NCBI RefSeq assembly: GCF_001997385.1
Contig: NZ_CP019633.1
Location: forward strand, 1,980,001 to 2,012,000
Direction of reading: 5' to 3'
From: Sedimentisphaera cyanobacteriorum
GTDB taxonomy: Bacteria > Planctomycetota > Phycisphaerae > Sedimentisphaerales > Sedimentisphaeraceae
Length of the DNA stretch: 32,000 bases
Shown: positions 2,496 through 31,699 of the stretch, one piece after another
How the letters are laid out: every line of letters starts with the position of its first letter
How positions within the stretch are numbered: position 1 is the first letter of the stretch
Position numbers and translations under genes: made by a program
Notes under the pieces: model-generated
The model's database searches: none
The model's input: only the letters and a program-made list of their open reading frames with translations
Told to the model about the DNA's origin: nothing

Positions 2496-3455
2496 ATGAG
2501 CAGTAAAGAGATTGACAGAAGAAGTTTTCTTGGCAGTGCAGGGGCTCTGGCTGCCGGAATAATGCTGAATTCCGGTACGCCGGCAAAGGCCGCACAAAAC
2601 GGCAAGGCAGGAAGTAAGCAGGGTTCGAGAATCTGCCATCTAACAGATATCCATATCACACCCTTCAGAGATGCTCCGGAAACTTTCGAAAAGGCGATTG
2701 AGCAAATTAATTCACTAAACCCAAAGCCGAGTCTTATAGTTACCGGCGGAGACAATATTATGGATTCCTTCTCAACCCCTGAAGAGCAGGTGAAAAGGCA
2801 GTATGAGGTGCTTGATAAGCTGATGGCAAAAACGGACATCCCCGTTAAATACTGCCTCGGCAATCACGACCTCTGGGGCTGGAACAAATCCAAGAGCAAA
2901 ACCACCGGAGATGAGGCAAAGTGGGGAGCAAAATGGCCTATCCGGCATTACGGTCTTCCCGGGGAATACTACACATTCAACCATTCCGGCTGGAAATTCA
3001 TTATCCTCAACACTGTCCAGCCGGACCCGAACGATAAAAACGGATATATCGGCGGGATTGGAGACAAGCAATTTGCCTGGCTTGAAAATGTGCTTGCGGG
3101 TATGCCTTTAGATATGCCCGCTGCGATTGTATCCCATATCCCCCTGCTGACAATTTCAAATTTCGAGCTTATGGATTCAGGGCGGAATCTGCCTAAAATA
3201 AATCCCGGCTGGATATGCTACGACGGGCCTAAGGCAGCAAAGCTTTTCAGCAGATACAAAAATGTAAAGCTCTGCCTCAGCGGGCATATGCACCGCCAAG
3301 ACAGAATCGACTATATGGACGTTAGCTATATCTGCGACGGAGCCGTCTCCGGAGGCTGGTGGCGAGGGCCGCACAGAGGCTGCCAAGCCGGCTTCGGCCT
3401 GCTGGACTTAAACAGCAACGGAAGCTTCAAACACGAATATATAGAATATCTGTAA
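2496..3455 (+). CDS. Tat-exported calcineurin-like metallophosphoesterase
   Basis: 319-aa ORF. Twin-arginine signal (DRRSFLGSAGALAAGIMLNSGTPAKA). Metallophosphoesterase motifs are DIH, GGDNIMD, GNHD, SHIPL and GHMH. AAGGAAG RBS upstream of the ATG. Confidence 0.8.
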   Translation: MSSKEIDRRSFLGSAGALAAGIMLNSGTPAKAAQNGKAGSKQGSRICHLTDIHITPFRDAPETFEKAIEQINSLNPKPSLIVTGGDNIMDSFSTPEEQVKRQYEVLDKLMAKTDIPVKYCLGNHDLWGWNKSKSKTTGDEAKWGAKWPIRHYGLPGEYYTFNHSGWKFIILNTVQPDPNDKNGYIGGIGDKQFAWLENVLAGMPLDMPAAIVSHIPLLTISNFELMDSGRNLPKINPGWICYDGPKAAKLFSRYKNVKLCLSGHMHRQDRIDYMDVSYICDGAVSGGWWRGPHRGCQAGFGLLDLNSNGSFKHEYIEYL

Positions 3456-3485: not shown

Positions 3486-4583
3486 TCAAAACTCCTGCGC
3501 TTCTTCTTTCCCGGGAGAAGCGTAGAGAGGATCGAGAGCTTTAACTCGGATCTCGCCTGTATCAAGCTGGCGGATATCCATTGGCACAATTGTAACCCCC
3601 TGTTTGTTCACGGTGTAGGCGGTATCGCTCAAGTCTTTGGTTTGGGCATGTTTTCTGCTGATTCTCGGAACGTTTGCATTGTAGAACGCAGTGCACCACC
3701 ACCGGCCTTGCTTATCCTTGAAAAGGGTGCCGTGGCCGAGGAATCTTCCTGCAAATTTTCTTTTGCCGTATCCTCCGTTTATCTTATCAGAAACGCAGTA
3801 GTAAAGGTTGTATGAGCCTTTGCGCATCTTGTCCGTTGACCAGCCCGTTCCGAACAATACATACTTATCGCCGATCTTCCTTATCATGCAGCCCTCATGG
3901 CCGATTTTTCTGTTTGAAGGCCAAATGCGCACCCAATCACCGGCCACGCCGGAGAAATCATCTTTCAGCGGAACAATATTAGCAGCTCCCCAGATCAGCC
4001 ATACTCTTCCGTTTTCATCTTCAAACAGGGTAGGGTCGTGCCTTTTGCGAATATTCTTCCCCATCGGATTGAGATAAGGGCCTTCAAGCTTTCTGCCCCT
4101 TGTAACTGAGAGATTAGCCCCGTTAACAGGAGCAGGGCTTGTATGAACAATAACCCAGCATCCGTCTATAAAGTGCATCTCCGGAGCCCAAAGCCGCCAG
4201 TCGTTTATGTTTCTGTGCTTTTCGGGATATACCTCCGGCCAGATTCCGTCTGCAAGAGAATAAGGAGCCCCGATATACTCCCAATCGATAAGGTTTCTGC
4301 TTCTCCAGAGCCGCATAATATGCCCAACCCTGTTCGGCGAGATGTTGTCGTTATATTTGTTATGAAGGAATTTTTCCGAATCCTCAGGGAGTTTGGTTGT
4401 GCCGGTGAGGTAATACCAGCCGTCCGGCATAAGAATTATGTACGGATCTCTTATCCAGCCGTCTTTGATGTGAAGGGCTTTGTTTCTTTCCTTTAGCCCT
4501 GCCCTTATCTTCTCAGCGGGCATTGCAGCAAACAGCGAGGAGCAAATTAGTGCCAACACGCAGATTATTACTGATTTCTTCAT
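3486..4583 (-). CDS. Secreted glycoside hydrolase family 43-like protein (five-bladed beta-propeller)
   Basis: 365-aa ORF with an N-terminal signal peptide (MKKSVIICVLALICSSLFAA). GH43-type blocks are RDPYIILMPDGWYYLTGT, LWAPEMHFIDGCWVIVHT and IGHEGCMI. Confidence 0.75.
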   Translation of the reverse strand: MKKSVIICVLALICSSLFAAMPAEKIRAGLKERNKALHIKDGWIRDPYIILMPDGWYYLTGTTKLPEDSEKFLHNKYNDNISPNRVGHIMRLWRSRNLIDWEYIGAPYSLADGIWPEVYPEKHRNINDWRLWAPEMHFIDGCWVIVHTSPAPVNGANLSVTRGRKLEGPYLNPMGKNIRKRHDPTLFEDENGRVWLIWGAANIVPLKDDFSGVAGDWVRIWPSNRKIGHEGCMIRKIGDKYVLFGTGWSTDKMRKGSYNLYYCVSDKINGGYGKRKFAGRFLGHGTLFKDKQGRWWCTAFYNANVPRISRKHAQTKDLSDTAYTVNKQGVTIVPMDIRQLDTGEIRVKALDPLYASPGKEEAQEF

Positions 4584-15631: not shown

Positions 15632-15850
15632 TTTAAACCACTAAGGACGCTAAAGACACGAAGGGGATATGTTTTTAATTGATTTTTCGTCCACAGATGG
15701 CACTGATCGCACTGATAATTGTATGAATGTAAGAGCTTTCTGTAAAACAGTTTATAACATAAATCTTCGCGGGCTTCGAGCCCTTCGCGGTTTAAACCAA
15801 TTACAAAAAATCCTTCGCGGGCTTGGTGTGCTTCGTAGTTTTAAACAAAT
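15632..15850. repeat. Mosaic intergenic repeat patch C
   Basis: TTTAAACCACTAAGGACGCTAAAGACACGAAGGGGATATGTTTTTAATTGATTTTTCGTCCACAGATGGCACTGATCGCACTGAT shares the core with 10868-10915 and 11224-11281. It is followed by CTTCGCGGGCTTCGAGCCCTTCGCGGTTTAAACC and CCTTCGCGGGCTTGG. These are the inverse of the CGCGAAGGGCGCTAAGGGC module at 4718-4748. Confidence 0.8.
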
Positions 15851-16031
15851 TACCCGCCCAAAAATTGTGTCTAAAAATATTAACCCGTCAATCCCGTCGT
15901 ATAATTCTGTAAATCTCATTAAAAAATCTTTGCTGCACTCGCTGTTTAAGATAAATTTGCAAAAACCGCCCGAAGAGTTTATTATTCTAATGAGAACAAA
16001 TTTAGAATTACTGCATTTAAGGAGATATCTG

Positions 16032-17060
16032 ATGCGCGTGAAACACTTGCTTATCTTAACGGCTCTGAGCTCTATTATCTTTCTCAGCTCTTGTGCGGGC
16101 AATAAAAGTATGGAGCTTTCTTATGAGAATCCCGTTTGGGACGGCTATCTTGCAGACCCCCACATATTCCGAGCCGAAGGTTCATACTATGCTGTAGGTA
16201 CAGGTCAGGCCGAGGACGGCAGGCATTTCCCGATAGTTAAATCTGATGATTTTGTGAACTGGGAGCATACAGGCGGCGCGCTTGAGCCTCTGGAAGAGCC
16301 GAACCTCGAGCTGTACTGGGCTCCTGAGATCGCCGAGAGGGACGGGAAGTTCTATCTGTACTATGCAGGCGATATGAATATGCGTGTGGCTGTGGCCGAG
16401 AGCCCTGAGGGGCCTTATGAAGATGCGGGCATCAAGCTTTTCCCCGATCTTGAATTTTCGATAGACGGCCATCCATACAAAGACCCTGTCAGCGGTGAAT
16501 GGTATCTTTTCTTCGCCAAAGACTTTTTCGATAAAAAGCCCGGAACCGCTCTTGCTGTAGTGAAGCTGGGAGATGATATGCTCTCTACAGAGGGGCAGGT
16601 GCATACTGTTATGCGGGCATTCTCAGACTGGCAGATATACGAGCGCAACCGGGACTGGTACGATAAAACCTGGCCTGCCTGGTACACAGTAGAGGGGCCT
16701 GCGGTTCTCCATAAAGACGGCAAATACTACTGCTTTTATTCAGGCGGGAACTGGCAGACTCCCGGTTACGGGGTAGGCTGCGCTGTATCGAAGGATATTA
16801 CCGGGCCGTATAAAGACCCGTGGAGCGAATCAGAGCCTTCTGTGCTCAGCAGTGATGATACAGAGCTTATTGGCCCGGGGCATAATTCAGTAATAAAGGC
16901 TCCGGACGGGCAAACTTGGTTCATCGTGTATCATTCATGGAACAGCGAGCAGACAAAGCGGCAGATGTGTATCGATCCTCTGATTTGGACATCCGAAGGG
17001 CCGAAATGCTTCAACCCTTCCCGCGGCGAGAAAACTGTTTCCCTGCCCCTTAATGACTAA
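16032..17060 (+). CDS. Glycoside hydrolase family 43 lipoprotein
   Basis: The track ORF (15669-17060) starts inside repeat patch C. The credible start is the ATG at 16032, preceded by AAGGAG (16019-16024). It gives MRVKHLLILTALSSIIFLSSCAG (lipobox). GH43 blocks are YLADPHIF, LYWAPEIAERDGKFYLYYA, TVEGPAVLHKDGKYYCFYSG and GPGHNSVI. Confidence 0.85.
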   Translation: MRVKHLLILTALSSIIFLSSCAGNKSMELSYENPVWDGYLADPHIFRAEGSYYAVGTGQAEDGRHFPIVKSDDFVNWEHTGGALEPLEEPNLELYWAPEIAERDGKFYLYYAGDMNMRVAVAESPEGPYEDAGIKLFPDLEFSIDGHPYKDPVSGEWYLFFAKDFFDKKPGTALAVVKLGDDMLSTEGQVHTVMRAFSDWQIYERNRDWYDKTWPAWYTVEGPAVLHKDGKYYCFYSGGNWQTPGYGVGCAVSKDITGPYKDPWSESEPSVLSSDDTELIGPGHNSVIKAPDGQTWFIVYHSWNSEQTKRQMCIDPLIWTSEGPKCFNPSRGEKTVSLPLND

Positions 17061-17081
17061 CAGTTTCCCCTTGTGCTGATT

Positions 17082-19073
17082 TTAATTGCCCCAGATCCAC
17101 TGCGAAGCAAAAAAGCTGAAATCCGGCTTGTTTACTGCCCCGTCGCCTCCGACGGGAGCAGTATCGCAGATATAATTCGAGCTAAGCCAGTCGCCTGTAA
17201 AAATCATCAGGTCTGAGGCGTTCACCTGTCCGTCGAAGTTGAAGTCTGCGCGGTAATATGAGCCCGTCCAGGTTTGTTCAATGCCTGTGTCTGTCAGAAT
17301 AATCGGTTTGATCTGGTCGCCGTCGTATTCAATTTTCTCAATGCACACCGAGCGTGAGCCGGAATATGGCCCGTCATCAAGGTGTTCGTTCCAGCGGTGA
17401 TAAACTATACACCATTCATCCACTGCTTTGTTATGCACAAACGAATGATGCCCCGGCCCTTTGAACCACCCTTGACTGCTCGCCAGCTCGCCTTGATAGT
17501 TCCAAGGCCCGAGCGGCGAATCGGAGGCGCAGTAATGGATTGAGTAGCTGCTGTTGTTCCAGCGTCCATTGCTGTAGGAGAGGTAGTAAACGCCGCTGCG
17601 ATAATGCATAAACGCGCCTTCAGTGAAATTTGGCGGGTTGTCAACGTTGATTTCCTGCTTGAAGCTGAGCATATCATCATTCAGTTCGAATACGCGCAGC
17701 TTAGAACCGGCGCTTCCGCCTGCATAGAAGTAAAACTTGCCTGAAACGGGGTCTTCAAACACCATCGGGTCTATCGCTTCGAAGCCCGGGCTGCCGTTAT
17801 CTGAAAGAAGAGCGGAGCCCTTGTCTGTAAACCGGCCGTTCGGCCTCCGGGCGTGTGCGACGCCGATATGCGAAGGTTTCGGGCCAACGGAATAGTAGAA
17901 GTAGTATGTGTTGTCTTTCTCAATTATGCACGGAGCCCATGCGTATTTGCCAGAGGGTATCCAAGAAATCTGGTTGAAATTCAAAATTTCCTGCCTTGAA
18001 GACCAGTTCACCATATCCGAAGATGAATAAGTGTAAAAGCGGCGCGGAAAGCCGGAGGTAGGATAAATCCAAGCCTTGTCGTGGGTGAGCATAATGTGAG
18101 GGTCTGCCCCGTCGAAAAGCGGATTGCGTTTTGTCGAGGGGTTAGGGGTCATAAGCAGCTCATTAAGCGAAAGGGCGGATGTAGAGATTCGCACCTCATC
18201 GATATACCCCCAGCAGCGGTCTGTTCGCTGGGCGTCATACATCCCGCGTCCTACCGACCACGCCCCGGTATGCCAGCCCTGGCCGCTTTGCGTGCCGGCA
18301 GTGAGCGATCTGTCTGGGCTCGGGCTTTCGGTTAGGTCTGCCTGGCCCACGAGGAAGGGGTCTGTGCCTGCTGTTATGTTTGCCAGATACAGGCTCAGCG
18401 TGCTGCCGTCGTTAATCGCAGCCATATAATACCAGCGTCCGTTCTGTCCTTGCGGGTCTGAGCTGAAATCGAAGCCGTCTATCATATCCGAAGGCGATTC
18501 TGCGATATGCTGGTATCCGGAGACATCCGCATAAACGATTGCAACGCTGTCGTCCGGACGAATCTGGAAGTAAAGAGCGGAAAGATTTGAGTTGCCGCCG
18601 ATTACATCAACCGCATCCCTGCCCACTACAGTGCGGTAACCGCCGTCTTCGGGCTTGAAAAATGCCTCGATAGTGAATTGGGACGGGGTGATTGTTTCAA
18701 TGTCGATTCCGGCAGGCAAGCTGCCAGGGCCTTCTGCCGAATCTTGGGAGCGCGTCTCAAGTGAGGGGGAAGAGCCGGTATTTTTTATGCTGTATGAATT
18801 TTCAGCCCCGCTCTGCGGGATAGAGGGGTAAGGTGTTTCGTTTTTGTAGCGCAAGCCCTGCTGGCCAGCCTGAGTTCCCGGGTCTAAATGGTTGCCGTTT
18901 CCTGAGCTGTCCGCAGCTCCGAATGTCTTTTGAACAGCCCCGTTTGCAGGCCCTTCGTCAAAACGCCAGTAAGCGACTGTTTCTGCCTTTAATGCTGAAG
19001 CGAAAAAAGAAAGCATTAAAAGCGGCAGGCAGCCTGCCAGCATCCGTCTAAGGTTTGAAGTGAGTAAATTCAT
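17082..19073 (-). CDS. Secreted LamG (Laminin_G_3) - GH43 - dockerin-like fusion protein
   Basis: Signal peptide from the ATG at 19073 (MNLLTSNLRRMLAGCLPLLMLSFFASALKA); the track start at 19115 is a TTG. LamG blocks are AYWRFDEGP, FTIEAFFKP, WYYMAAINDGSTLSLYL and GYIDEVRISTSALS. GH43 blocks are GADPHIM, YAWAPCIIEKDNTYYFYYS, FTEGAFMHYRSGVYYLSYS and GPGHHSFV. The C-terminal EF-hand-like pair is DFNFDGQVNASD plus GGDGAVNKPDF. Confidence 0.8.
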   Translation of the reverse strand: MNLLTSNLRRMLAGCLPLLMLSFFASALKAETVAYWRFDEGPANGAVQKTFGAADSSGNGNHLDPGTQAGQQGLRYKNETPYPSIPQSGAENSYSIKNTGSSPSLETRSQDSAEGPGSLPAGIDIETITPSQFTIEAFFKPEDGGYRTVVGRDAVDVIGGNSNLSALYFQIRPDDSVAIVYADVSGYQHIAESPSDMIDGFDFSSDPQGQNGRWYYMAAINDGSTLSLYLANITAGTDPFLVGQADLTESPSPDRSLTAGTQSGQGWHTGAWSVGRGMYDAQRTDRCWGYIDEVRISTSALSLNELLMTPNPSTKRNPLFDGADPHIMLTHDKAWIYPTSGFPRRFYTYSSSDMVNWSSRQEILNFNQISWIPSGKYAWAPCIIEKDNTYYFYYSVGPKPSHIGVAHARRPNGRFTDKGSALLSDNGSPGFEAIDPMVFEDPVSGKFYFYAGGSAGSKLRVFELNDDMLSFKQEINVDNPPNFTEGAFMHYRSGVYYLSYSNGRWNNSSYSIHYCASDSPLGPWNYQGELASSQGWFKGPGHHSFVHNKAVDEWCIVYHRWNEHLDDGPYSGSRSVCIEKIEYDGDQIKPIILTDTGIEQTWTGSYYRADFNFDGQVNASDLMIFTGDWLSSNYICDTAPVGGDGAVNKPDFSFFASQWIWGN

Positions 19074-19401
19074 ATAAACCCCGTGTTCCCTTCTATTTAA
19101 TGTTTGTTTCAGCAAACTGAAAAACGCTGATAATCTCTTGCAGATAATACCTGATTCAGGCTGCCTGTCAAACTTATTGCTTTTATGGTCTAATATTGTA
19201 TGTTTTTGGATTACGCTTTTAATATTTAATACGGTTATCGGCTTATTTTTTCATTTTTTTTTGTAAAAATAATTTGGGAATGTTAGTTATATGCAGTATA
19301 AAGGCCATTTGCATTTAAAGATACCAAAATAATTCAACTTTTGATATTGACCTTAGTTTTCAAAGATTTTGCAAACAGACTTAATTTTATGGAAAAGATT
19401 T

Positions 19402-20610
19402 ATGGAAAATACATTCAAAAAAATCTGCTTTGCCTCTGCGGTTTGCTGTATTATTTCAGCCGCAATTGTTCATGCTGGGGAGCTTGTCCCTCAGATTGAC
19501 GACAGTACTGCAAGATTCAATTCAACCACACCTCAGGTCGGAGAGACCGGCGATATTGAACCAATTGAAGGCGTTGGAGCGATTACACTGGCGGCTCGTT
19601 TTACCCCCTCATCGCAGGATATATCGAATTCTAATTCCGGCCCGGTTATAATAATAGAAACCGGCGGCACCACCTACGGCAACGGGCTATATATCTGCGG
19701 AGAGGACATTGTTTACTTCACCAAAGGCTCTAACGGCTCCGGTGGAAATTTAAGTACCCAGACATCGCTCAACGATACTGATGTAAGCGATAACGCAGCC
19801 TCCTATACTATAGGCCCGGTAAATTCCGGGGAGGATACAGTAGTTTACATTTCGTTAAACAGCGCAACCGGCGAGCTTACAGCGGGCCTTAACGGCGAGG
19901 TAAGCCAGACCATAATAAACGGGACAGTTGAGTGGGCGAATCTGTCGGGCAACGAATCGGTAAGCTTTTTCAGCAAAGGCACTTCCGCTGAGGAAGCAGG
20001 CTTTATGGGCGGCCTTACCAACACCGACCAAGGCCAAGGCGACCTCTGGAACGCGGGCCTAGCTCACGGCTTTGAAGGTGTAAGCGGGGCGCCCGCAAGG
20101 GGGCAGATTTTTGCCCAGCTCGCTCCTGAGGTGCTTCCGCCTTACTCTGTTTTCGTGAACCAGACGGGTGAAGAAACACTCATTGCAGAAGGCGGAGCGT
20201 CCGATGAGATTACAGTCGGGGTCAACAGCGACCCTGGGCAGTACCCTGTAGAGGTGGGGCTTTCTTTGTCTGAGCCGGAGCAGGCGAATTTATCTCAGCA
20301 GACCCTCACATTCACTCAATCAAACTGGGGCAGCAGCCAAACTGTTACCATAACAGCAGAGGATGACAGCAAAATGGAAAGCAAAACCCACTACGTCCAG
20401 CTTAGTTTTGATGTGAGAGCTGATGAGCAGTCTGAATATCACGGATTTATGGTCGCACCTGTGACAGTGGAGATTGAGGAAAACGACTGCGGGAGCTGGG
20501 GGATGTTCAACAAGGCGGATTTCAACAACGACTGTCAGGTGGATTTTGAAGATGCACTTGAACTTTCAGCTTCTTGGCTCGAAAGCACAATGCCGGAGCA
20601 GGCGGTTTGA
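19402..20610 (+). CDS. Secreted protein: jelly-roll (LamG-like) N-domain, Ig/Calx-beta-like middle domain, dockerin-like C-terminus
   Basis: The ATG at 19402 gives the signal peptide MENTFKKICFASAVCCIISAAIVHA; the track start at 19369 is a TTG. The C-terminal ~150 aa are paralogous to the next gene (…TVTITAEDDSKME…VEIEENDCGSWG…DFNNDCQVDFEDALELSASWL). No catalytic motif recognised. Confidence 0.7.
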   Translation: MENTFKKICFASAVCCIISAAIVHAGELVPQIDDSTARFNSTTPQVGETGDIEPIEGVGAITLAARFTPSSQDISNSNSGPVIIIETGGTTYGNGLYICGEDIVYFTKGSNGSGGNLSTQTSLNDTDVSDNAASYTIGPVNSGEDTVVYISLNSATGELTAGLNGEVSQTIINGTVEWANLSGNESVSFFSKGTSAEEAGFMGGLTNTDQGQGDLWNAGLAHGFEGVSGAPARGQIFAQLAPEVLPPYSVFVNQTGEETLIAEGGASDEITVGVNSDPGQYPVEVGLSLSEPEQANLSQQTLTFTQSNWGSSQTVTITAEDDSKMESKTHYVQLSFDVRADEQSEYHGFMVAPVTVEIEENDCGSWGMFNKADFNNDCQVDFEDALELSASWLESTMPEQAV

Positions 20611-20651
20611 AAGCCTTTTTTAACTGAAATTAAAGTAAATAATAGCAGGGA

Positions 20652-21941
20652 ATGAAAATGAGAATTTATTTATTGATGCTGTTTTTGATTGCCGTTACCG
20701 CAGCTGCTGTACCCGTTGCAGACGGGCTTATCCTCCATTTCGATGCGGGGGATATTTCAGGCCTCAGCGACGGAGACGAGCTGAGCGAATGGCAGGATTC
20801 AGCAGATGATGACACGGTTTCAGGCGATGCTTATTCGCAGGTCGGAACGGGGGAGCCTGCTTACAAAACGAATGTGATTAACGGGCTGCCCGCCGTAAGA
20901 TTCGAAAGGAATCAGGAAGACGTTCTGGTGTCTTCTCAATTTGCTCTGCCAAACCCTTCACAGGGGCTTACTGTTTTTATAGTCTGCACAGGCGGGCAGA
21001 GCGGAAGCGTTGAAAGAGCCGCGCAGATTGGCTCTTCAGCGGGAACAGCCTCTCATCTTATGGGTATAGACGTATCCTCGAATACCTCCGGCTGCCGCTA
21101 CAACAACGGCTTCTCGCTAACGCCGGCAGATTCCAATCCTGTTGAAGCGGGACAGTTCCATATTGGTGTAAGGCAGATGCAGGACGGCGGAACACACAGC
21201 GATTTGTTCTACTCGTGCAATGATTTAGAGCCGGAGAATATTCAGGCGAATAACCCATCGAATGTAATAACGTTCGACCGTTACAATAATGACATTACCA
21301 TAGGCACCGGCAGAGGCCCAGACGGGCAATGGTATCCTGATTTCTACGAAGGCGATCTCGCAGAGCTGATTATTTACAACCGTCAGCTTATCACTTCTGA
21401 ATTGCAGGAGGTGGGCGATTATCTCTCACAGAAATACAGCCTCCCCTTCACCTCAGAAGAGCTTCTGATTGATGAAACCGGAGGCGATACGACTGTTCAG
21501 GAAGGCGGTTTCAGCGATATTGTAAATGTATCTGTTTCCACAGACCCGGCCGGGTACCCTGTTCAAATCACGCCTGAGGACACATTAGACCCCAGCCAGA
21601 CCATAATCAGCCCTTCTTCAATTACGATTGATTCTGATAACTGGCAGGACACTCTCAGCTTCACAGTTACCGCTGTGGACGATGATTTTATGGAAAGGCC
21701 GGTGCACGACACGACAATCATATTTGATATTCAAACCGATCCTTCTTCCCCTTACTATGGCATGCAGCCTTCGGAATTGTGGGTTGATATTGAAGATAAC
21801 GACTGCGGGAGTCAAGGCTTCAGCAGGCAGGATTTGAATCTGGACTGCCGCGTTAATCTGGAAGATTTCTATCTCTTTGCCGACGAGTGGCTCGCCTGCG
21901 GCTTGCCCGACCCTGAATGTCAGCCTTCTGCGCTGCAATGA
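20652..21941 (+). CDS. Secreted LamG-domain protein with Ig/Calx-beta-like and dockerin-like C-terminal modules (tandem paralog of 19402-20610)
   Basis: Signal peptide MKMRIYLLMLFLIAVTAAA. LamG blocks are GLILHFDAGD, NGLPAVRFE and GDLAELIIYNRQLITSELQEVGDYLSQKY. The C-terminus is FTVTAVDDDFME…VDIEDNDCGSQG…DLNLDCRVNLEDFYLFADEWLACG. Confidence 0.75.
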   Translation: MKMRIYLLMLFLIAVTAAAVPVADGLILHFDAGDISGLSDGDELSEWQDSADDDTVSGDAYSQVGTGEPAYKTNVINGLPAVRFERNQEDVLVSSQFALPNPSQGLTVFIVCTGGQSGSVERAAQIGSSAGTASHLMGIDVSSNTSGCRYNNGFSLTPADSNPVEAGQFHIGVRQMQDGGTHSDLFYSCNDLEPENIQANNPSNVITFDRYNNDITIGTGRGPDGQWYPDFYEGDLAELIIYNRQLITSELQEVGDYLSQKYSLPFTSEELLIDETGGDTTVQEGGFSDIVNVSVSTDPAGYPVQITPEDTLDPSQTIISPSSITIDSDNWQDTLSFTVTAVDDDFMERPVHDTTIIFDIQTDPSSPYYGMQPSELWVDIEDNDCGSQGFSRQDLNLDCRVNLEDFYLFADEWLACGLPDPECQPSALQ

Positions 21942-21981
21942 TAATAACAAGAACGAGAAATAATTTAGAGAAAGTGTTAAT

Positions 21982-23523
21982 ATGAATCGAAGAACATTTC
22001 TAAAAACAAGCTGTTACGGAACTGCCGGCTTAGCCCTTGGCAGTTTGTCCTCTGTAAGCCCGGCTGATAACATAGACCGTCCTAATCTTATATACGTATT
22101 TGCAGACCAGCTCGGTGTTAATCACTGCGGCTACGCAAAATACTGGAACGGGACGAATTACCATAACGCTCAGCTCGCTCGTACGCCTAATATCGACGGC
22201 TTCGCATCTCAGGGCATAAATTTCAAGAATTGCGTTTCGAATATGCCGGTATGCTCGGCTTACAGAGCAAGCCTTTTCACAGGCAAGTACACTACAACCA
22301 ACGGAATGGTAATCAATGAGCTTAGGATGAATCCATACCATGAATGTTTGGGGCATGTGCTAACAAGAGGCGGGTACAACACAGCGTATATCGGGAAGTG
22401 GCATCTTTATGCCAACCAGCTCGGAAATCATTACGACCCGAACAATTCTTTCGTTCCTCGCGGCAAACATCGGCTTGGATTCAACGGCTTCTGGGCGGCC
22501 TACAATTTCCATCACGATTATTACGGCGACCACGCATACTACCATACTGAATCGAAAGACAAGATTCGCTTCGGCGAAGGAGTTTACGAGCCGGACGGCC
22601 AGACTGATCTTGCTATTGACTGGCTCAAATGCAGGGCGCAGAAATCTTCGCTGCCGTTTTCGATGGTGCTTTCTTATGGCACGCCCCACGCCCCGTGGAA
22701 CACGGGGAACGTGCCGCCGGAGTATATGGATATGTTTGCAGATAAGAGTATGCCGAACCCGCCGAACTATGAACCGGAAAATGATGAGCCGTATTCGGAC
22801 AGTTGGGCAGATTTGAGTCCAAATGCACGAGACCATCTCGAACAGCGACGAAGGATATACTACGCAATGACAACGAATTTGGACTGGAATTTTGGCCGTC
22901 TGCTGGATTATCTAGATGAAAGCGGGCTTGCTGATAACACGATCGTTGTTTTCACCTCCGACCACGGAGAGATGTTCGGCTCGCACGGAAGAGAAGCGAA
23001 AAACACGTTTTACGAAGAGGCTGCAAGAATACCGTTTCTCGTGAGGTGGCCGGGCAAGATTCCCGCAGGGCAGGTTTCAGATACCTGCATTTCAACGGTT
23101 GATTTTATGCCTACTCTGCTGGATCTGATGAAGCTGCCTATTCCTTCAAGAGTGGAGGGGCAGAATCTCAGTCATATTGCCAAGGGCGAATCCGGGCCGG
23201 AGCCAGAAGTTGCTTTTCTCCAGAACACCGGCGCCTGCGCCGCTTGGCAGAACGGCTACGAATGGAGAGCTGTGCGCGATAAACAATACACATACGCACG
23301 CTACCGCGTGGACGGACTGGAGCTTCTCTTTGATAACGTGAATGACCCGTACCAGATGAATAACTTGGCTTCCAATCCCGAATACAGCAGCAAGCTCTCT
23401 GAGCTAAGAACCAAGATGGACAATAAGATGGCCAGTATCAGCGATGAAAACCATACCTGCCTCTGGTACAGGGATCATTTTACAGACGGAAACAGAAATA
23501 TACTCCGCGGAGCCAGGGGCTGA
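21982..23523 (+). CDS. Tat-exported sulfatase (formylglycine-dependent type I sulfatase family)
   Basis: Twin-arginine signal MNRRTFLKTSCYGTAGLALGS. PNLIYVFADQLG. Formylglycine motif CSAYRASLFTGKY (the C-x-A-x-R variant). GKWHL. FTSDHGEMFGSHG. Confidence 0.88.
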   Translation: MNRRTFLKTSCYGTAGLALGSLSSVSPADNIDRPNLIYVFADQLGVNHCGYAKYWNGTNYHNAQLARTPNIDGFASQGINFKNCVSNMPVCSAYRASLFTGKYTTTNGMVINELRMNPYHECLGHVLTRGGYNTAYIGKWHLYANQLGNHYDPNNSFVPRGKHRLGFNGFWAAYNFHHDYYGDHAYYHTESKDKIRFGEGVYEPDGQTDLAIDWLKCRAQKSSLPFSMVLSYGTPHAPWNTGNVPPEYMDMFADKSMPNPPNYEPENDEPYSDSWADLSPNARDHLEQRRRIYYAMTTNLDWNFGRLLDYLDESGLADNTIVVFTSDHGEMFGSHGREAKNTFYEEAARIPFLVRWPGKIPAGQVSDTCISTVDFMPTLLDLMKLPIPSRVEGQNLSHIAKGESGPEPEVAFLQNTGACAAWQNGYEWRAVRDKQYTYARYRVDGLELLFDNVNDPYQMNNLASNPEYSSKLSELRTKMDNKMASISDENHTCLWYRDHFTDGNRNILRGARG

Positions 23524-23568: not shown

Positions 23569-25725
23569 TTAGAACATTGGGTTTCTAAGGACATCTGCTG
23601 TTTTCAGAGGGGCGTCGTACACGCGTACGGTTTCCAGTTTGCCTTCGAAATCCTCAGACAGCGAAATTTTCTCTGTCCTGAATATGAGCTCATATATGTT
23701 GTAATCAGTATTCTGAGGCAGAACAATCTGCCCGTTGATTATGCCGTACACGTATTCTGCCCTGTAATCGATGATCAGAGCAATATGATTTGCCTCCTCC
23801 TCTTCGAGGAAGGGGCAGTTGAAACGGAGCGAACTGCTGCTGCCGTGCCCTCTCAGCGAATATTCGATTATATTGTCCGAGCTTCTGGAAACTGAAAATT
23901 CTCTTCCGCCTCTGCTTTCCAGAACGAGTATATCTTCGGGAGCATCTTCTTTCTGCATTTTTGCATAAAATTCGAGAGTGAGCCCGTTCTGATTGGCGGA
24001 TTTGGTTCTGCCGAAATTATTCACAGCTCTGGTTTTGTATTTATGCATCTTGCCTTCGCCTATTTCAATGGCAAGGTGTTTGGAAGTCCTCAAAGACATC
24101 GTTCTGGGTATAAAGCTTACCACGCCTTCCTTTGCGAACTGTACACGCATTGTGTCCCCGCTGCGGTAATACATCATCGGATCGTCGTCCTGTTCGAGTA
24201 TGCCACCGAAGCTGAAGGTGTCTTTCTCGGAATTTGGAGAATACAGAATAAGCTCAGGCTGATTCCAGCCCTCTTCTTCCCTTGCCTTTGTAAGCAGGTA
24301 CACGTAAGCACCTTTGCCTTCCTTCTCCACCTGAGAGAGAAGCATCTCGCCCAAGTTTTCTGTATTTTCGTAGTATGTCTTAACGCTGCCTCGCATTAGG
24401 GCATAGTTGTTGTCTGGATATCTGCAAACCTCGGCATCTGCCTTGTTTTCAAGTGTTGGTTTTTCAGTTATTTCGGCATAAAGCAGGTGTCCCTTTTCTG
24501 AGGCAAAGCTTACTATGAGTTTATCTCCGTTAGAGGCGATATTGAAGCTTTCGCTTTTGGGCGTTACTGCTGAAGGTATATCCATAAGCTGATCTATAGG
24601 CTGTGCTGTCCATGCGTTCTGCCCTGTTACAGAAGAAGTGTAGGATTCAGTGATTGCCAAAAGAGGAACATTATCCTCTCTGTCCAGCAGGACATATACA
24701 TACTCGCCCGCTACAGCACCTCGAGAAATAGAATTCACCGTCTCAATCTCAATATCACAGTTGATTTTTGTAGGTGCGTTCCAGTCGAACCCTTCGTCCG
24801 GTGATCTGTAAACGTAAAGTCCGCGGTAGAACTCAGGGTTGTCTTTTGCCTGCTCAAGCGGAGGCAGGTCATCCTTTGTGTCTCTTGCAAGCACCATAGC
24901 AAACGTATTGGAAACATCAAGCTGGAATAATGAAACGTAAGGTTTTGCGTAAAATTTTTCCTGAGACATTGTGGCAGCCGTTACAGACCAGTTCTCCCCG
25001 CCGTCGTAGCTTCGTACTGTTTCCATACGGTAATAATTTATCCCTGCCTTGCTGGCTATCTTGGTAGCAAATGTCATGAGCGTATCGTCCGACAGCTTGA
25101 TCATATTAGATGAGCCGTAGAGGGATTCGTTGTCTATTTTTGTCCCGTTGTTTGCATAGCGGTCGTCGGTGCGAATGTAATATTTGCTTTTCATATCGGC
25201 GAAAATTTTGCTGTGTTCATCGCTGCTAAGCTTTCGGTTGTAAAAAAGCAGCTGTGTTATGGCGCAGTCGTAGCCCGGTTCGCCTCTTAACACCAGCGTT
25301 CGGTTTTCAAAAACGTAAGAAAATCCGTCCTTCCTGTTTTCTCTGGTTTCGCTGTTGAAATCGAGGACTTTGAAGTCCGGGTAGTCTTTCTCATAATTTT
25401 TGATGTAGTAGCCTATTATGATGTGGTAGTCCGCAGGCTTCTCAACAGGCTTAAACCTGATGCTCCTCGAACTCGAGATCGATATTGCGGCCTGAGACTG
25501 GGCGAAATCCTTGATGAAAAGAGGCCTTCTGTTCACCTTAGTCTGCTGGGCAACAATAGAGGTTTTCTGCTCGTTTCTCAGGTTCGAAAGAAAGGCATCG
25601 TTGGTGTTTTTTACATTGCTCGCCTTAATGTGGATAAGAAGCCCTTTCTCAGGAGGCTGAGAATACACTGCTGAGGCTGTCAGAGCATGGACTGCTAATA
25701 ATAAAATTACTGTTTTTTTAATCAT
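23569..25725 (-). CDS. Secreted hypothetical protein: LamG-like N-domain, central BNR/Asp-box region, LamG-like C-domain
   Basis: The ATG at 25725 (AGGA RBS) gives MIKKTVILLLAVHALTASA. An alternative ATG lies at 25767. Asp-box-like motifs are SYDGGENW and SPDEGFDW. LamG-type terminal strands are ITQLLFYNRKLSSDEHSKIFADMKSKY and KLETVRVYDAPLKTADV. No catalytic residues can be assigned by eye. Confidence 0.7.
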   Translation of the reverse strand: MIKKTVILLLAVHALTASAVYSQPPEKGLLIHIKASNVKNTNDAFLSNLRNEQKTSIVAQQTKVNRRPLFIKDFAQSQAAISISSSRSIRFKPVEKPADYHIIIGYYIKNYEKDYPDFKVLDFNSETRENRKDGFSYVFENRTLVLRGEPGYDCAITQLLFYNRKLSSDEHSKIFADMKSKYYIRTDDRYANNGTKIDNESLYGSSNMIKLSDDTLMTFATKIASKAGINYYRMETVRSYDGGENWSVTAATMSQEKFYAKPYVSLFQLDVSNTFAMVLARDTKDDLPPLEQAKDNPEFYRGLYVYRSPDEGFDWNAPTKINCDIEIETVNSISRGAVAGEYVYVLLDREDNVPLLAITESYTSSVTGQNAWTAQPIDQLMDIPSAVTPKSESFNIASNGDKLIVSFASEKGHLLYAEITEKPTLENKADAEVCRYPDNNYALMRGSVKTYYENTENLGEMLLSQVEKEGKGAYVYLLTKAREEEGWNQPELILYSPNSEKDTFSFGGILEQDDDPMMYYRSGDTMRVQFAKEGVVSFIPRTMSLRTSKHLAIEIGEGKMHKYKTRAVNNFGRTKSANQNGLTLEFYAKMQKEDAPEDILVLESRGGREFSVSRSSDNIIEYSLRGHGSSSSLRFNCPFLEEEEANHIALIIDYRAEYVYGIINGQIVLPQNTDYNIYELIFRTEKISLSEDFEGKLETVRVYDAPLKTADVLRNPMF

Positions 25726-25815
25726 ATTTTTCCTGCTGTTAAACTCATAACTTTGACGTTTACCCATTATATTAGCATAATTTTATAAAAAAACCAAAAC
25801 TTTGAAAAAATGTGA

Positions 25816-25843
25816 TTGACTGATTGACAGGTGTTCCTATAAT
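25816..25843 (+). promoter_or_regulatory. rrn promoter P1 (sigma70-type) with an upstream A-rich UP-like tract
   Basis: TTGACT (25816-25821), a 16-nt spacer, then TATAAT (25838-25843). The upstream sequence ATAAAAAAACCAAAACTTTGAAAAAATG is A-tract rich. Confidence 0.7.
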
Positions 25844-25910
25844 TCGCCGTTCCCTCGTTGATAGGCTAATTCAAGCGTGCGGTTGAGAAATAGAAAGCTA
25901 AACAACTTTC

Positions 25911-25938
25911 TTGACATTACGCTCAGTTTAGTTATATT
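25911..25938 (+). promoter_or_regulatory. rrn promoter P2 (sigma70-type)
   Basis: TTGACA (25911-25916), a 16-nt spacer, then TATATT (25933-25938). The tandem P1/P2 layout is typical of rRNA operons. Confidence 0.65.
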
Positions 25939-25973
25939 AATGTGTCTCGCTTTAGAGCGGGAAGTTACAGGGA

Positions 25974-25985
25974 GCTCTTTAACAA
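25974..25985 (+). promoter_or_regulatory. Leader boxA antitermination element
   Basis: aGCTCTTTAACAA matches the E. coli rrn boxA consensus TGCTCTTTAACAA at 12 of 13 positions. It lies 51 nt upstream of tRNA-Ile. Confidence 0.7.
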
Positions 25986-26036
25986 ACGGAGACAGAATCG
26001 AGCTTTTGGGTTTAACCCCTTGGGCTCATAGAGATA

Positions 26037-26110
26037 TGGGCTCGTAGCTCAGCCGGCTAGAGCGTTCGCCTGATAAGCGAGAGGTCGAAGGTTCGAGTCC
26101 TTCCGGGCCC
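26037..26110 (+). tRNA. tRNA-Ile (anticodon GAT)
   Basis: Hand-folded. Acceptor GGGCTCG/CGGGCCC plus A. D-stem GCTC/GAGC. Anticodon loop CTGATAA. T-arm GAAGG-TTCGAGT-CCTTC. Confidence 0.92.
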
Positions 26111-26120
26111 ACTGTTATCA

Positions 26121-26194
26121 GGGGGCTGTAGCTCAGCTGGGAGAGCATCTGGTTTGCATCCAGAAGGTCGTCGGTTCGAATCCGTCCAGCTCCA
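26121..26194 (+). tRNA. tRNA-Ala (anticodon TGC)
   Basis: Hand-folded. Acceptor GGGGCTG/CAGCTCC with the diagnostic G3:U70 pair. Anticodon loop TTTGCAT. T-loop TTCGAAT. Confidence 0.92.
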
Positions 26195-26195
26195 A

Positions 26196-26208
26196 TGTTC
26201 TTTAACAA
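26196..26208 (+). promoter_or_regulatory. Spacer boxA element upstream of 23S
   Basis: TGTTCTTTAACAA matches the boxA consensus at 12 of 13 positions. It sits immediately after tRNA-Ala, the position of the spacer boxA in classical rrn operons. Confidence 0.65.
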
Positions 26209-26340
26209 TTAAATAGAGATAGCGAAAAGGTTAATTGTACCCATACAAATAAGCGGTACAATTTCACTGTAGATTAACACATATACCTAAGTTAGTTTTT
26301 TTCAATAAGGCGAACACATTAGTCAGTTAATGATTGATGT

Positions 26341-29147
<2,807 letters not shown>

Positions 29148-29238
29148 ATATCAATCATTGATTGACTTAACGTAGGTAAACGTTAATCCGCTGTCTCTTT
29201 TTCTTTGAATATAACGCTCATTTGAGCTTATAATAATC

Positions 29239-29345
29239 TTGCTGGTGACTATACTGAAGGGGAAACGCCTGATCCCATTCCGAACTCAGAAGCTAAGCCC
29301 TTCAGGCCGATGATAGTCTAAGCGAAAGTAGGTGATCGCCAGCTT
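29239..29345 (+). rRNA. rrf: 5S ribosomal RNA, unusually short (about 103-107 nt; ends +/-3 nt)
   Basis: Contains CCCATTCCGAACTCAGAAG and GCCGATGATAGT. Helix I pairs GCTGGTGA (29241-29248) with TGATCGCCAGC (29333-29343). The segment corresponding to E. coli helices IV/V is about 11 nt shorter. Confidence 0.88.
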
Positions 29346-29349
29346 TATG

Positions 29350-29381
29350 AAGCTCCTCAGGGAAACTTGAGGAGCTTTTTT
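29350..29381 (+). terminator. Rho-independent terminator of the rrn operon
   Basis: An 11-bp stem AAGCTCCTCAG / TTGAGGAGCTT with loop GGAAAC, followed by a T6 tract, 5 nt after the 5S. Confidence 0.9.
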
Positions 29382-29527
29382 AATGCAATGGCAGAAAAAG
29401 TGAATAATACTGGGGCAATAAAACTGCAGGACAAAGCCTCTTAGCGCGAACCACCAACACCTTATCAGCAAGATAATAATACACGGAAGGGAATAAATTT
29501 TTTCAGACATCCTGAATGGTTCATAAA

Positions 29528-29555
29528 TTGATATCAGAATTATTAATGGTATAAT
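29528..29555 (+). promoter_or_regulatory. Sigma70-type promoter with extended -10 for the Panacea-antitoxin operon
   Basis: TTGATA (29528-29533), a 16-nt spacer ending in TGG, then TATAAT (29550-29555). It lies 85 nt upstream of the ATG at 29641. Confidence 0.55.
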
Positions 29556-29640
29556 AGCTTTTACTTTTGAAGACGGCAAACTATTGTATATGAATATTCG
29601 TAAATTCTATTTAAAGGAAGTGATTTTGAGACTGTAAGCT

Positions 29641-30165
29641 ATGTTAAGAAATAAAATACATTTCGATTTTAGAAAAGAAAATGCCATTCAAGCTGTAATG
29701 TGGTTTTTGAGCAGGCACGGATATAGATTAGACCAGATGAAAGCATTGAAACTGATGTATCTTGCCGATAAGGCCCATTTGGCAAAGTACGGCAGGCCAA
29801 TTGCAGGGGGCAGCTACTACGCAATGAGATATGGTCCTGTTTGCTCAGAGCTTTACGACCTTTTCAAAGACCCCTCTGGTATCCCTTTTCACTTAGAAGA
29901 CAATTTTCTAAAGGCAGATGAATGCGAATATGAAGAAGATTGTTTGTCTGAATCTGATAAAGAGATTTTGTCTGAGATAAATGAAAAATTTGGCTCCAAA
30001 GATCCGTTTTCTTTAAGCAGCTACACTCACGAATTACCTGAATATAAAAATATATGGGATGAGAACAGAAAAGAGGGCAGGAAAAAAATAGATTATGAAA
30101 GCATTATTAACGATGAGGAAATGAAGGAGATAATTGTGGATGACCAGTCTGCTTGGGATTTTTGA
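29641..30165 (+). CDS. Panacea-domain (DUF4065, SocA/GepA-like) type II antitoxin
   Basis: 174-aa ORF. The block MKALKLMYLADKAHLAKYGRPIAGGSYYAMRYGPVCSELYDLFKD fits the DUF4065 core pattern (KL.YL.D..HL...GRPI.G..Y.A...GPV.S..YD). The C-terminal LSSYTHELPEYKNIW resembles the family LS..SH....W block. Confidence 0.85.
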   Translation: MLRNKIHFDFRKENAIQAVMWFLSRHGYRLDQMKALKLMYLADKAHLAKYGRPIAGGSYYAMRYGPVCSELYDLFKDPSGIPFHLEDNFLKADECEYEEDCLSESDKEILSEINEKFGSKDPFSLSSYTHELPEYKNIWDENRKEGRKKIDYESIINDEEMKEIIVDDQSAWDF

Positions 30166-30416
30166 TGGACTTGCCAGAATCTTTAACAATAGATAAAATT
30201 CTCAACACACCTGGCGCCGCTTTCAGAGCAGTGCTTCAAGAAGAAAACGAAAAGTTCAGGTTTTATTTCATAGCAAACTCAGACCCGCAAAATCAAGATA
30301 AATTATTGATGCTTACTGCCACATCCCGCATAGAAAGTGTAAGGAAAAAATTTCCGAAAGAAGTGCTTGTGCTTATAAAAAAAGCGATTTCCCCCAGCTT
30401 GAAGAGGATTCATTGA
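30165..30416 (+). CDS. Hypothetical protein; candidate toxin partner (N-terminal part if fused with 30413-30607)
   Basis: The ATG at 30165 overlaps the upstream stop (TGATG, 30163-30167), indicating translational coupling. The track start at 30153 is a TTG. Product: MDLPESLTIDKILNTPGAAFRAVLQEENEKFRFYFIANSDPQNQDKLLMLTATSRIESVRKKFPKEVLVLIKKAISPSLKRIH. No motif I can name. Confidence 0.5.
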   Translation: MDLPESLTIDKILNTPGAAFRAVLQEENEKFRFYFIANSDPQNQDKLLMLTATSRIESVRKKFPKEVLVLIKKAISPSLKRIH

Positions 30417-30607
30417 TTAATTGTGAGATGGCAAAAGTGAAATTGAAATCACAGCTCAGAGATAGTCTATTAAAGGCTAACGATAACGGCAATTTGCTGT
30501 TCTTAGCCCCGCTTCCTGAATCGCTTCTTGTAAAAGTGCGTACATCGATCGCAAAGTGCAAAACAATTCCTCCAATAGACAAAAGACTTGCAATTGCTGA
30601 AGAGTGA
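30413..30607 (+). CDS. Hypothetical protein; probable C-terminal part of the candidate toxin (frame -1 relative to 30165-30416)
   Basis: The TTG start overlaps the upstream stop (TTGA). The first ATG is at 30428 (MAKVKLKSQL...). This frame is already open from 30302, i.e. 37 codons upstream of the annotated start in AT-rich DNA. Confidence 0.45.
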   Translation: MINCEMAKVKLKSQLRDSLLKANDNGNLLFLAPLPESLLVKVRTSIAKCKTIPPIDKRLAIAEE

Positions 30608-30627: not shown

Positions 30628-31488
30628 TCAGCCCTTTTCCTTGTAGTGCGGTTTTTGAGCCCATTTAAGTTTGTATGCCAGCACGTCCCATTCGGTTTTA
30701 TCGGGGTTGCTGATTATCTCGAAATTTTGCGGGCTTTTTTCAATTTTAATGCTCTCAACGTCATTTAGCTCGGCAATGTTTTGCCCGTCTGCATTTACAG
30801 AAGAGCCCTCGTTCACCGAGAGAGGGTATATATGAATCACCTTCCTCGAATCCACCACCACCGGCCTGAAGCTCAGCGAATGGGGATTGAGCGGGGTAAT
30901 GCAAACCGCCTCTACATCGTTTGATATAATCGGCCCGCCCGCTGAGAGGTTGTATGCTGTTGAGCCTGTGGGGGTGCAAACAACGATTCCGTCGCCAACG
31001 CAGCTTGTTACCGGGCTGGAATTGACCTCGATTTCCATTTCAATCGTGTTGAATGGCCGCCCGGAGTTTATTGCTATGTCGTTAAGTGCGCATGCCGTCT
31101 CCACTGTACCGTCTTTTTTCACCGTCTCGCAGTTTATCAGCTGTTTCTTCTCAACAGCGAATCGGCCTTTGAAAATCTGGTCGAAATGCTTCTCGAGATG
31201 TTCTAAGCTGAATTCTGCGAGGAATCCGAGCCTTCCCATATTTATCCCCGCAGCGGGTATTCCCGCTCCGAGAAGGCTGTGTGCTGCGTGCAGGATAGAC
31301 CCATCCCCGCCTATTACAACAGCGATATCGGCAATGCCGGCAAAGTCTGCGCAGTTTTTTCTGCCGAAGCAGTTTTCGAGAATTTCCGCTTTGCCCTCGG
31401 CGAACTTCCTGAACACTTCAACCGCCTCGGCGGATTCTTTCCTTTTTATGTCTGCAAAATATATCAGCTTCATAAGGAGTACTTTCAT
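30628..31488 (-). CDS. nadK: NAD(+) kinase
   Basis: Blocks are VVIGGDGSILHAA, GINMGRLGFL, LNDIAI and GDGIVVCTPTGSTAYNLSAGGPI. The track start (31614) adds about 42 non-conserved residues. ATGs at 31488 (MKVLLMKLIYF) or 31473 give the normal ~285-aa length. The start is uncertain. Confidence 0.85.
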   Translation of the reverse strand: MKVLLMKLIYFADIKRKESAEAVEVFRKFAEGKAEILENCFGRKNCADFAGIADIAVVIGGDGSILHAAHSLLGAGIPAAGINMGRLGFLAEFSLEHLEKHFDQIFKGRFAVEKKQLINCETVKKDGTVETACALNDIAINSGRPFNTIEMEIEVNSSPVTSCVGDGIVVCTPTGSTAYNLSAGGPIISNDVEAVCITPLNPHSLSFRPVVVDSRKVIHIYPLSVNEGSSVNADGQNIAELNDVESIKIEKSPQNFEIISNPDKTEWDVLAYKLKWAQKPHYKEKG

Positions 31489-31699
31489 TAAAGAGAAAGT
31501 TTTGTACAAACTTTTCTGATTATATAAAATCCACCCTTTCAAATAAAGCTTTTTTATCCGCCCAGTTCTGATTTTTCTCTTCAGCATTAGCGTGCGTACG
31601 AATTTCGGCGCCAATTGCTTGCAATTCCGAGAGTATAGTATATATTCGATATTGTGTTACAAATGGAATTAACCAGCTTTGTTTTAAGGCTTAGATATT

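Follow-up and report, generated by a model that had tools for sequence, protein, structure and literature searches.

Gene content of the locus

The window analysed here is a 32,000-nucleotide (nt) stretch of the Sedimentisphaera cyanobacteriorum chromosome. Towards its 3' end lies what is likely to be a toxin-antitoxin operon, composed of a gene for a Panacea-domain protein (panA) and a partner gene (panT) whose product has a predicted MazF/PemK fold and whose reading frame is broken, by comparison with the sister species S. salicampi, through the loss of a single base. Positions are those of the window, and the locus comprises the following features:

29528-29555, plus strand: apparent panAT promoter of sigma-70 type, with TTGATA, a 16-nt spacer and TGgTATAAT (extended -10); 11 of 12 positions matched.
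29641-30165, plus strand: panA, 174 amino acids (aa); putative stand-alone Panacea (DUF4065) antitoxin without an N-terminal helix-turn-helix.
30165-30416, plus strand: 5' piece of panT; presumed ancestral codons 1-73 (30165-30383), followed by 10 out-of-frame codons and a stop.
30377-30383, plus strand: frameshift site; run of seven A (A7) that lacks one nt by comparison with AAAAAAGA in S. salicampi.
30384-30607, plus strand: 3' piece of panT, read in the -1 frame (presumed ancestral codons 74-147) and listed as a 64-aa open reading frame (ORF) from TTG 30413.

The protein encoded by panA is identical to WP_077540441.1/AQQ09805.1 of S. cyanobacteriorum. It matched the Pfam family SocA_Panacea (PF13274) over residues 36-135 with an E-value of 6.3e-24 and a score of 85.5 bits, above the curated cut-off of 25.7, and therefore belongs to the Panacea domain family. 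No solved structure matched it by sequence. Comparison with S. salicampi gave a ratio of nonsynonymous to synonymous substitution rates (dN/dS) of 0.14, consistent with purifying selection on panA. The C-terminal tail (residues ~136-174) lies outside the Pfam domain, is acidic and ends in ...DDQSAWDF; it reads ...DYESIINDEEMKEIIVDDQSAWDF in the window, and of its last 24 residues nine are acidic and one is basic. Two of its positions, W172 and E163, were invariant in all ten aligned cognate PanAs, which were overall only about 33% identical. The stop codon of panA (TGA, 30163-30165) shares one base with the next ATG (30165-30167), giving the overlap TGATG.

Promoter-like sites as good as the one at 29528-29555 occurred only four times in the 32-kb window, for 0.41 +/- 0.65 expected from Markov simulations, and two of the three others precede the tRNA-Ile / tRNA-Ala / 23S / 5S operon. 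A 60-bp block around the site (29501-29560) was 95% identical to S. salicampi, compared with 77% for the flanking spacer and the 5' untranslated region. Given that such sites are few yet exceed the expected number, and given the identity level of the block, the panAT promoter is apparently genuine and not a match by chance, and seems to be strong and conserved between the species. On its upstream side, just 3' of the 5S gene, a terminator-like element was observed at 29350-29381, made up of a perfect 10-bp hairpin (AAGCTCCTCA ... TGAGGAGCTT) and a T-run behind it. This element is 94% conserved in S. salicampi and absent from the terminator-scan list; it is probably the terminator of the rRNA operon and would insulate the panAT promoter.

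An earlier annotation made from the DNA letters (hereafter the original prediction) had proposed the 174-aa DUF4065/Panacea protein with its TGATG overlap, a near-consensus promoter of its own at 29528-29555 and 443 nt of coding sequence downstream. All three proposals were borne out.

The split partner gene and its relatives

The coding region downstream of panA (30165-30607, 443 nt) has no uninterrupted toxin reading frame in this genome. It consists of an 83-aa ORF (30165-30416) and, shifted to the -1 frame, a second ORF of 64 aa (30413-30607). The former is annotated as a hypothetical protein and is identical to AQQ09806.1/WP_123785170.1 (locus tag L21SP3_01625). In S. salicampi, the same synteny was found, with a 174-aa PanA, then a gene of 147 codons, then a convergent NAD kinase gene, and the product of the second gene (WP_094760015.1) is intact and 86% identical over its full length to the fusion of the two window ORFs. 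The 5' piece is colinear with residues 1-73 of this ortholog and carries R32 and T53. At the junction, S. salicampi reads AAAAAAGAGC opposite AAAAAAA-GC of the window or, in a wider view, ATAAAAAAGAGCGAT opposite ATAAAAAAA-GCGAT, and insertion of one base into the A7 run, making it A8, restores the 147-aa reading frame. The original prediction was thus right in joining the two ORFs into one 147-aa product, as the intact ortholog and the ~145-aa family described below confirm, but its A8 run arises only after the missing base has been added. Since the ortholog is intact and the family members, of about 145 aa, align end to end, the single 147-aa protein appears to be the ancestral state and the window copy a disrupted form of it. 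The 3' piece contains no internal stop and has a dN/dS of 0.28 with respect to S. salicampi, for 0.19 in the 5' piece. Between the species, the 5' part of the toxin gene (30165-30383) was more conserved at the nucleotide level (91%, dS 0.29) than panA (84%, dS 0.70), which could reflect either a constraint on the mRNA or chance, given the few sites.

Neither the 83-aa piece, the 64-aa piece nor their fusion had a Pfam match above threshold; for the fusion there was none in NCBIfam or PADLOC either, and for the S. salicampi ortholog none in PHROGs. Below threshold, Pfam PemK_toxin (PF02452) was the sole match of both the fusion (E 0.051) and the ortholog (E 0.0088). It was also the only Pfam family to recur among relatives, being matched at E <=1 by 22 of 50 family members (best E 3.5e-6). 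A profile of the family searched against PDB chain sequences gave eight matches, all of them MazF, PemK or EndoA (best E 0.0054). Alignment of the family with four MazF/Kid sequences by hhalign yielded a probability of 86.5% and an E-value of 4.6e-6 over 113 columns; the S. aureus MazF sequence among them agrees with the alignment from the PDB profile search. In this alignment, R32 and T53 stand opposite R25 and T48 of Bacillus subtilis MazF (R29 and T52 in Escherichia coli MazF), which we take to be the catalytic residues. Of the 50 members, 45 have R and five have H at position 32, and 44 have T and six have S at position 53.

The structure of the S. salicampi ortholog, predicted by AlphaFold2 from an alignment of 50 sequences, was of high confidence (mean predicted local distance difference test score, pLDDT, 95.4; predicted template modelling score 0.87). 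Searched against the PDB with Foldseek, this model gave 40 matches at E <=1e-3 (best E 1.3e-5). Among the best 50 matches, ranks 1-48 were all MazF, PemK, MoxT or EndoA endoribonucleases, with target-normalised template modelling scores of 0.64-0.75, rank 49 was CptN and rank 50 was again of the MazF/PemK/EndoA type. The best matches in BFVD, a collection of predicted viral protein structures, were phage 'PemK-like' proteins. Since weak sequence profiles consistently agreed with a confident structural model, the partner is, as modelled, a protein of MazF/PemK fold that is very divergent in sequence.

The model exceeds the MazF core of ~115 aa by a helix at the N-terminus (5-13), a long helix at 95-107 and an extension of the C-terminus. 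The latter bears a near-invariant K140, and Cys87 is likewise near-invariant in the family. The 3' piece of the gene would contribute three strands (83-86, 91-94 and 111-114) and two helices (95-107 and 119-130). As sequenced, the predicted product comprises residues 1-73 and 10 out-of-frame residues, with about half of the fold missing; without the three strands and the C-terminal helices, this 83-aa protein should not fold as MazF.

The original prediction had found no recognisable domain in the partner, which holds for curated thresholds only, given the weak PemK_toxin matches and the modelled fold. Of its impression of a CcdB/MazF-type toxin, the MazF half agrees with the Foldseek ranking, with the weak PemK_toxin matches and with the PDB profiles; CcdB appeared neither among the best 50 Foldseek matches nor among the profile matches.

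A phmmer search with the S. salicampi ortholog against 1.84 billion cluster representatives retrieved 87 relatives at E <=1e-3, nearly all of 125-176 aa and aligned end to end. When the fused protein served as query of a word-seeded search, the two Sedimentisphaera proteins alone were retrieved, and no relatives were detected by tblastn in cultured phages or plasmids, nor in a scan of IMG/VR. The 62 family-profile matches that had a source name came from Sedimentisphaera and from one Verrucomicrobiae metagenome-assembled genome only; the remaining matches were metagenomic proteins.

Contigs were read for nine distinct members (P0001, which is the S. salicampi ortholog, P0003, P0112, P0110, P0109, P0124, P0126, P0095 and P0049). 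All nine had a SocA_Panacea gene directly upstream on the same strand, at a gap of -1 to +10 nt, and short duplicate contigs confirmed the upstream Panacea ORF, though truncated there. The claim of the original prediction that the downstream gene is the partner of the Panacea antitoxin was therefore upheld by this neighbourhood survey. The arrangement corresponds to the two-gene locus of Kurata et al. 2022 (gap <=100 nt, partner conserved across species), and each context read had a Panacea protein in the place of an antitoxin of MazE/PemI type (AbrB or ribbon-helix-helix, RHH). In the reverse direction, a PanA homolog that is 40% identical (P0152, the only other one among the three sequences from a word-seeded search) precedes an ATGA-overlapped ORF starting MSSRGGEGLPPD, like the N-termini of the family. 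Flanking genes were all different among contexts, the two Sedimentisphaera genomes excepted. Such a distribution, in which the pairing with PanA is constant and the flanking genes differ, is characteristic of a mobile module made up of two genes.

The genes adjoining the homologous modules were of the following kinds, with NADH dehydrogenase or redox genes in other contexts:

L005 235-1562; L011 2910-4079; L013 332-1588 and 3262-5408: Type I or MmeI restriction-modification genes, as fragments of Type I HsdR/HsdS and an MmeI-type enzyme beside a DDE transposase.
L007 764-2104; L012 398-1780: phage terminase large-subunit genes.

These neighbours suggest that homologous modules lie in defence islands or prophages. 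Two types could be distinguished within the family. The first, to which Sedimentisphaera belongs, combines a PanA of ~175 aa with a toxin carrying R32/T53. In the second, PanA has ~200 aa and its C-terminal tail is longer, and the toxin has His/Ser at positions 32/53 (L005, L007, L009, L011, L012, L013 and L014, genes at ~2501-3440; motif PEPHYFIV...SS). The Trp near the C-terminus of PanA is invariant in both.

Proposed mechanism and alternative explanations

The interpretation starts from four findings: PanA has a Panacea domain, its partner adopts a MazF fold in the model of the S. salicampi ortholog, the two genes occur together across relatives, and the reading frame of panT is shifted by comparison with S. 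salicampi. We consider it likely that the locus is a chromosomal type II PanA-PanT operon in which a MazF-fold RNase toxin, neutralised by PanA, has recently been inactivated by a 1-nt deletion. One strong promoter (29528-29555) would drive panA, and the TGATG overlap would couple translation of panT to it. The ancestral PanT would have been a 147-aa protein of MazF/PemK endoribonuclease fold, with an N-terminal helix and a C-terminal extension in addition. By analogy with MazF, the intact toxin would act as a dimeric, sequence-specific RNase that arrests translation and would use the conserved Arg32/Thr53 pair, replaced by His/Ser in the sister subfamily. PanA would bind it directly and so neutralise it. 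In MazEF, the RNA groove of MazF is filled by the C-terminus of MazE, which is acidic and bears a Trp, and the likeliest contact would be a similar one, with the acidic, Trp-ended C-terminal tail of PanA in the groove of the toxin. The pattern of the PanA tail fits the idea of a 'linear neutraliser attached to Panacea' put forward by Ernits et al. (PMC10440598). In this genome, an intact and still-constrained antitoxin would then stand beside a very recently inactivated toxin, and the cassette is probably a fairly ordinary, decaying addiction or defence module.

Several points weigh against this interpretation. RNase activity and toxicity are attributed to the partner family by analogy, and the PemK_toxin scores of the fusion (14.2 bits) and of the ortholog (16.7 bits) lie below the gathering cut-off of 23.1. 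Neutralisation through the tail draws on analogy and on the conservation pattern; the AlphaFold2 model of PanA, built from three sequences, was unusable for this step (pLDDT 41.5), and some stand-alone Panacea domains neutralise through their globular core and not through a tail (PMC10440598). As for the biological origin of the frameshift, the clean frame of the 3' piece and its dN/dS, still at 0.28, would equally be expected of an intact gene, and no other S. cyanobacteriorum allele was found in protein and promoter-pattern scans of genome contigs or in a scan of metagenome contigs for the frameshift region.

The last points bear on the alternative that survives best, namely that the module is intact and functional, the A7 run being a homopolymer undercall of the assembly (true A8 or AAAAAAGA) and the 83-aa and 64-aa ORFs an artefact. 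Such an error is quite possible. One base is missing in or beside a homopolymer, and single-base deletions of this kind are the typical residual error of long-read assemblies. The conserved promoter and the purifying selection that PanA appears to be under are also what an intact module would display, as is the clean 3' frame. Against it, no other frameshift was seen among the genes of the window with a Pfam match, 12 of the 16 other ORFs scanned, which cover practically the full length of their profiles. This absence says little, however, since the intact genes of the window contain only four long homopolymers. Besides, the 83-aa call was kept by both GenBank and RefSeq, chromosomal toxin genes are commonly inactivated, and a very recent real mutation fits the same data equally well. 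On balance, we lean slightly towards a real, very recent pseudogene that has left an orphan antitoxin. In either case, the toxin copy in the window is probably dead or mis-sequenced, and the module may no longer work in this genome, its toxin gene being broken as sequenced.

It is also conceivable that the partner has a MazF-like fold without being a growth-inhibiting RNase toxin, for example as a non-catalytic nucleic-acid-binding or regulatory protein that co-occurs with PanA. Sub-threshold similarity to true MazF would be compatible with such a role, as would the extra N- and C-terminal elements, the near-invariant Cys87 and Lys140, which were not recognised from canonical MazF, and the disruption of the gene, tolerated in this genome. 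Among the PanT candidates of Kurata et al., moreover, 8 of 25 were not toxic in E. coli (PMC8832971). We nevertheless hold this role to be improbable: in unrelated contexts the gene remains strictly coupled, with overlapping translation signals, to one that encodes an antitoxin domain, the family conserves the counterparts of the MazF Arg and Thr, and two other MazF-like PanTs inhibit translation. Loss of the toxin with retention of the antitoxin is, in addition, the expected decay path of a toxin-antitoxin pair.

Less probable still is a frameshift that is real but leaky, through -1 ribosomal slippage or addition of one A by RNA polymerase, so that a little full-length toxin would be made in a low-dose system. 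The codons ATA AAA AAA GCG (30375-30386) do contain an in-phase A_AAA_AAA, a perfect X_XXY_YYZ slippery site created by the deletion, and either route of recoding would regenerate the exact ancestral ...LIKKSDFP... protein. Slippage is known from heptamers of Lys codons and from A-runs, as in dnaX and insertion sequence (IS) elements. On the other hand, no stimulatory RNA structure was found downstream (fold z-scores of +0.4 to +1.4 with respect to shuffled sequences), no strong Shine-Dalgarno-like element was seen upstream, A7 is short for efficient transcriptional slippage, and the frameshift occurs neither in S. salicampi nor in any other family member. An evolved programmed frameshift was rejected on the grounds of the missing downstream RNA structure and of the restriction of the shift to the window copy; any leaky recoding would be an accident at most.

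The reading of the partner as a gyrase poison of the CcdB type in place of a MazF-type RNase is scarcely credible: CcdB and MazF share a basic fold, and the motif impression of the original prediction fits both, but no CcdB appeared in the best 50 Foldseek matches from the PDB or in the BFVD list, the Pfam and PDB profile matches were all PemK/MazF, and it is with the Arg/Thr pair of MazF that R32 and T53 align.

To return to the preferred reading, that of a PanA-PanT operon with a MazF-fold toxin, its consequences are in part annotational. Two entries, the hypothetical protein AQQ09806.1 and an unannotated 3' remnant, become one frameshifted MazF-like toxin gene, and a ~145-aa family undetected by Pfam, NCBIfam and PADLOC at curated thresholds becomes, according to the model, a MazF-fold partner of Panacea antitoxins. 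If the conserved tail, acidic and Trp-bearing, is the neutralising element, this bears on what the Panacea core itself does, and the His/Ser subclade raises the question whether RNase activity persists there. A much wider reading, which we regard as unlikely, would make of these proteins a distinct, unnamed MazF-fold clade (at least 87 clusters at 50% identity, mostly from uncultivated bacteria) exclusively dedicated to Panacea antitoxins and marked by the N-terminal helix, by invariant Cys87 and Lys140, and by an Arg/Thr-to-His/Ser switch in one subclade. The Trp tail of PanA would then be a MazE-mimicking 'linear neutraliser' mounted on a sensor domain, the restriction-modification and terminase neighbours would point to phage defence by abortive infection with a new RNA target, and A_AAA_AAA might keep up a trickle of full-length toxin.

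Genomic surroundings and comparison with known systems

Upstream of the locus, the window contains an rRNA operon (25816-29344) with tRNA-Ile(GAT), tRNA-Ala(TGC), 23S (26341-29149) and 5S (29241-29344) genes. In front of the tRNAs lie two promoters (25816-25843 and 25911-25938), each in agreement with the consensus at 11 of 12 positions. There is no 16S gene upstream of the tRNAs, and the space is occupied by a 732-aa ORF on the minus strand (23569-25767) that had no Pfam match, so that 16S is not linked to 23S-5S at this place. Downstream of panT, the NAD kinase ORF (30628-31614, minus strand) is listed from TTG 31614 with 328 aa. The call in S. salicampi is of 283 aa and starts with MKLIYFAD; the equivalent start in the window is ATG 31479, and the longer N-terminus is probably not translated. 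Genes of polysaccharide degradation, namely three GH43 glycoside hydrolases and a sulfatase, lie in 3486-4583 and 15669-23523, and the ORFs at 19369-20610 and 20652-21941 (413-429 aa) had no Pfam match.

Among known systems, the type VI module SocAB of Caulobacter has in common with the locus the SocA/Panacea domain of its antitoxin. Identity with SocAB was rejected, the score of PanA against the NCBIfam SocA equivalog (NF047745) being 40.1 bits for a cut-off of 190. SocB is a DnaN-binding protein that lacks the MazF fold, and SocA is a ClpXP adaptor. CcdAB resembles the locus in its toxin, CcdB and MazF being members of one broad fold superfamily. Its antitoxin is different, and CcdB is not the closest relative of the partner, being absent from the best 50 structural matches and from the Pfam and PDB profile matches.

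The resemblance to MazEF, PemIK and Kis-Kid goes further. The modelled toxin fold is the same, the counterparts of B. subtilis MazF R25/T48 are conserved, and the operon is likewise bicistronic with the antitoxin gene first. The proposed neutralising tail would, like that of MazE, be acidic, Trp-containing and C-terminal. The differences concern both proteins: the antitoxin is a Panacea protein without a DNA-binding domain, unlike the AbrB/RHH-type MazE or PemI, and the toxins of the window family are ~30 aa longer, with the N-terminal helix 5-13, the helix 95-107 and the C-terminal extension, and fall below the PF02452 threshold.

Closest in composition are the systems in which PanA is paired with MazF-like RNase PanTs. 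Two of these, from Pseudomonas moraviensis (T6) and Bifidobacterium ruminantium (T25), were validated in E. coli, where protein synthesis was inhibited, and PemK is named among the PanT domains in the same report by Kurata et al. 2022 (PMC8832971). In claiming a new type of module, the original prediction thus overstated its case; its interpretation, including the MazF hunch, is otherwise supported as essentially right. The entries consulted in Dataset S1 of that report contain another PanAT pair of S. cyanobacteriorum L21-RPul-D3 (WP_077541746.1/WP_077541748.1, cluster T1, gap -14). Identity of the present pair with it was rejected in view of the different accessions and of the gap. Since this second, different pair is listed, the genome has at least two Panacea loci, and an orphan PanA could in principle cross-talk with the T1 locus. 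The pair WP_077540441.1/WP_123785170.1 was not found in the portions consulted of the datasets of PMC8832971 and PMC10440598.

The source names of the 62 matches mentioned above, none of which came from Pseudomonas, Halomonas or Bifidobacterium, suggest indirectly that the window toxin family may be separate from T6 and T25 (WP_083201923.1 and WP_026646888.1). Another difference is the frameshift of the window toxin. In other respects, the likeness to T6 and T25 is close: the operon is antitoxin-first, the Panacea antitoxin is stand-alone ('noNTD') and the stop and start codons overlap or nearly so. The T6 toxin, like that of the window, has no match in domain databases and is EndoA/PemK/MazF-like by remote homology only. 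The system therefore belongs to a kind that has already been described and validated, of which it perhaps represents a new PanT cluster.

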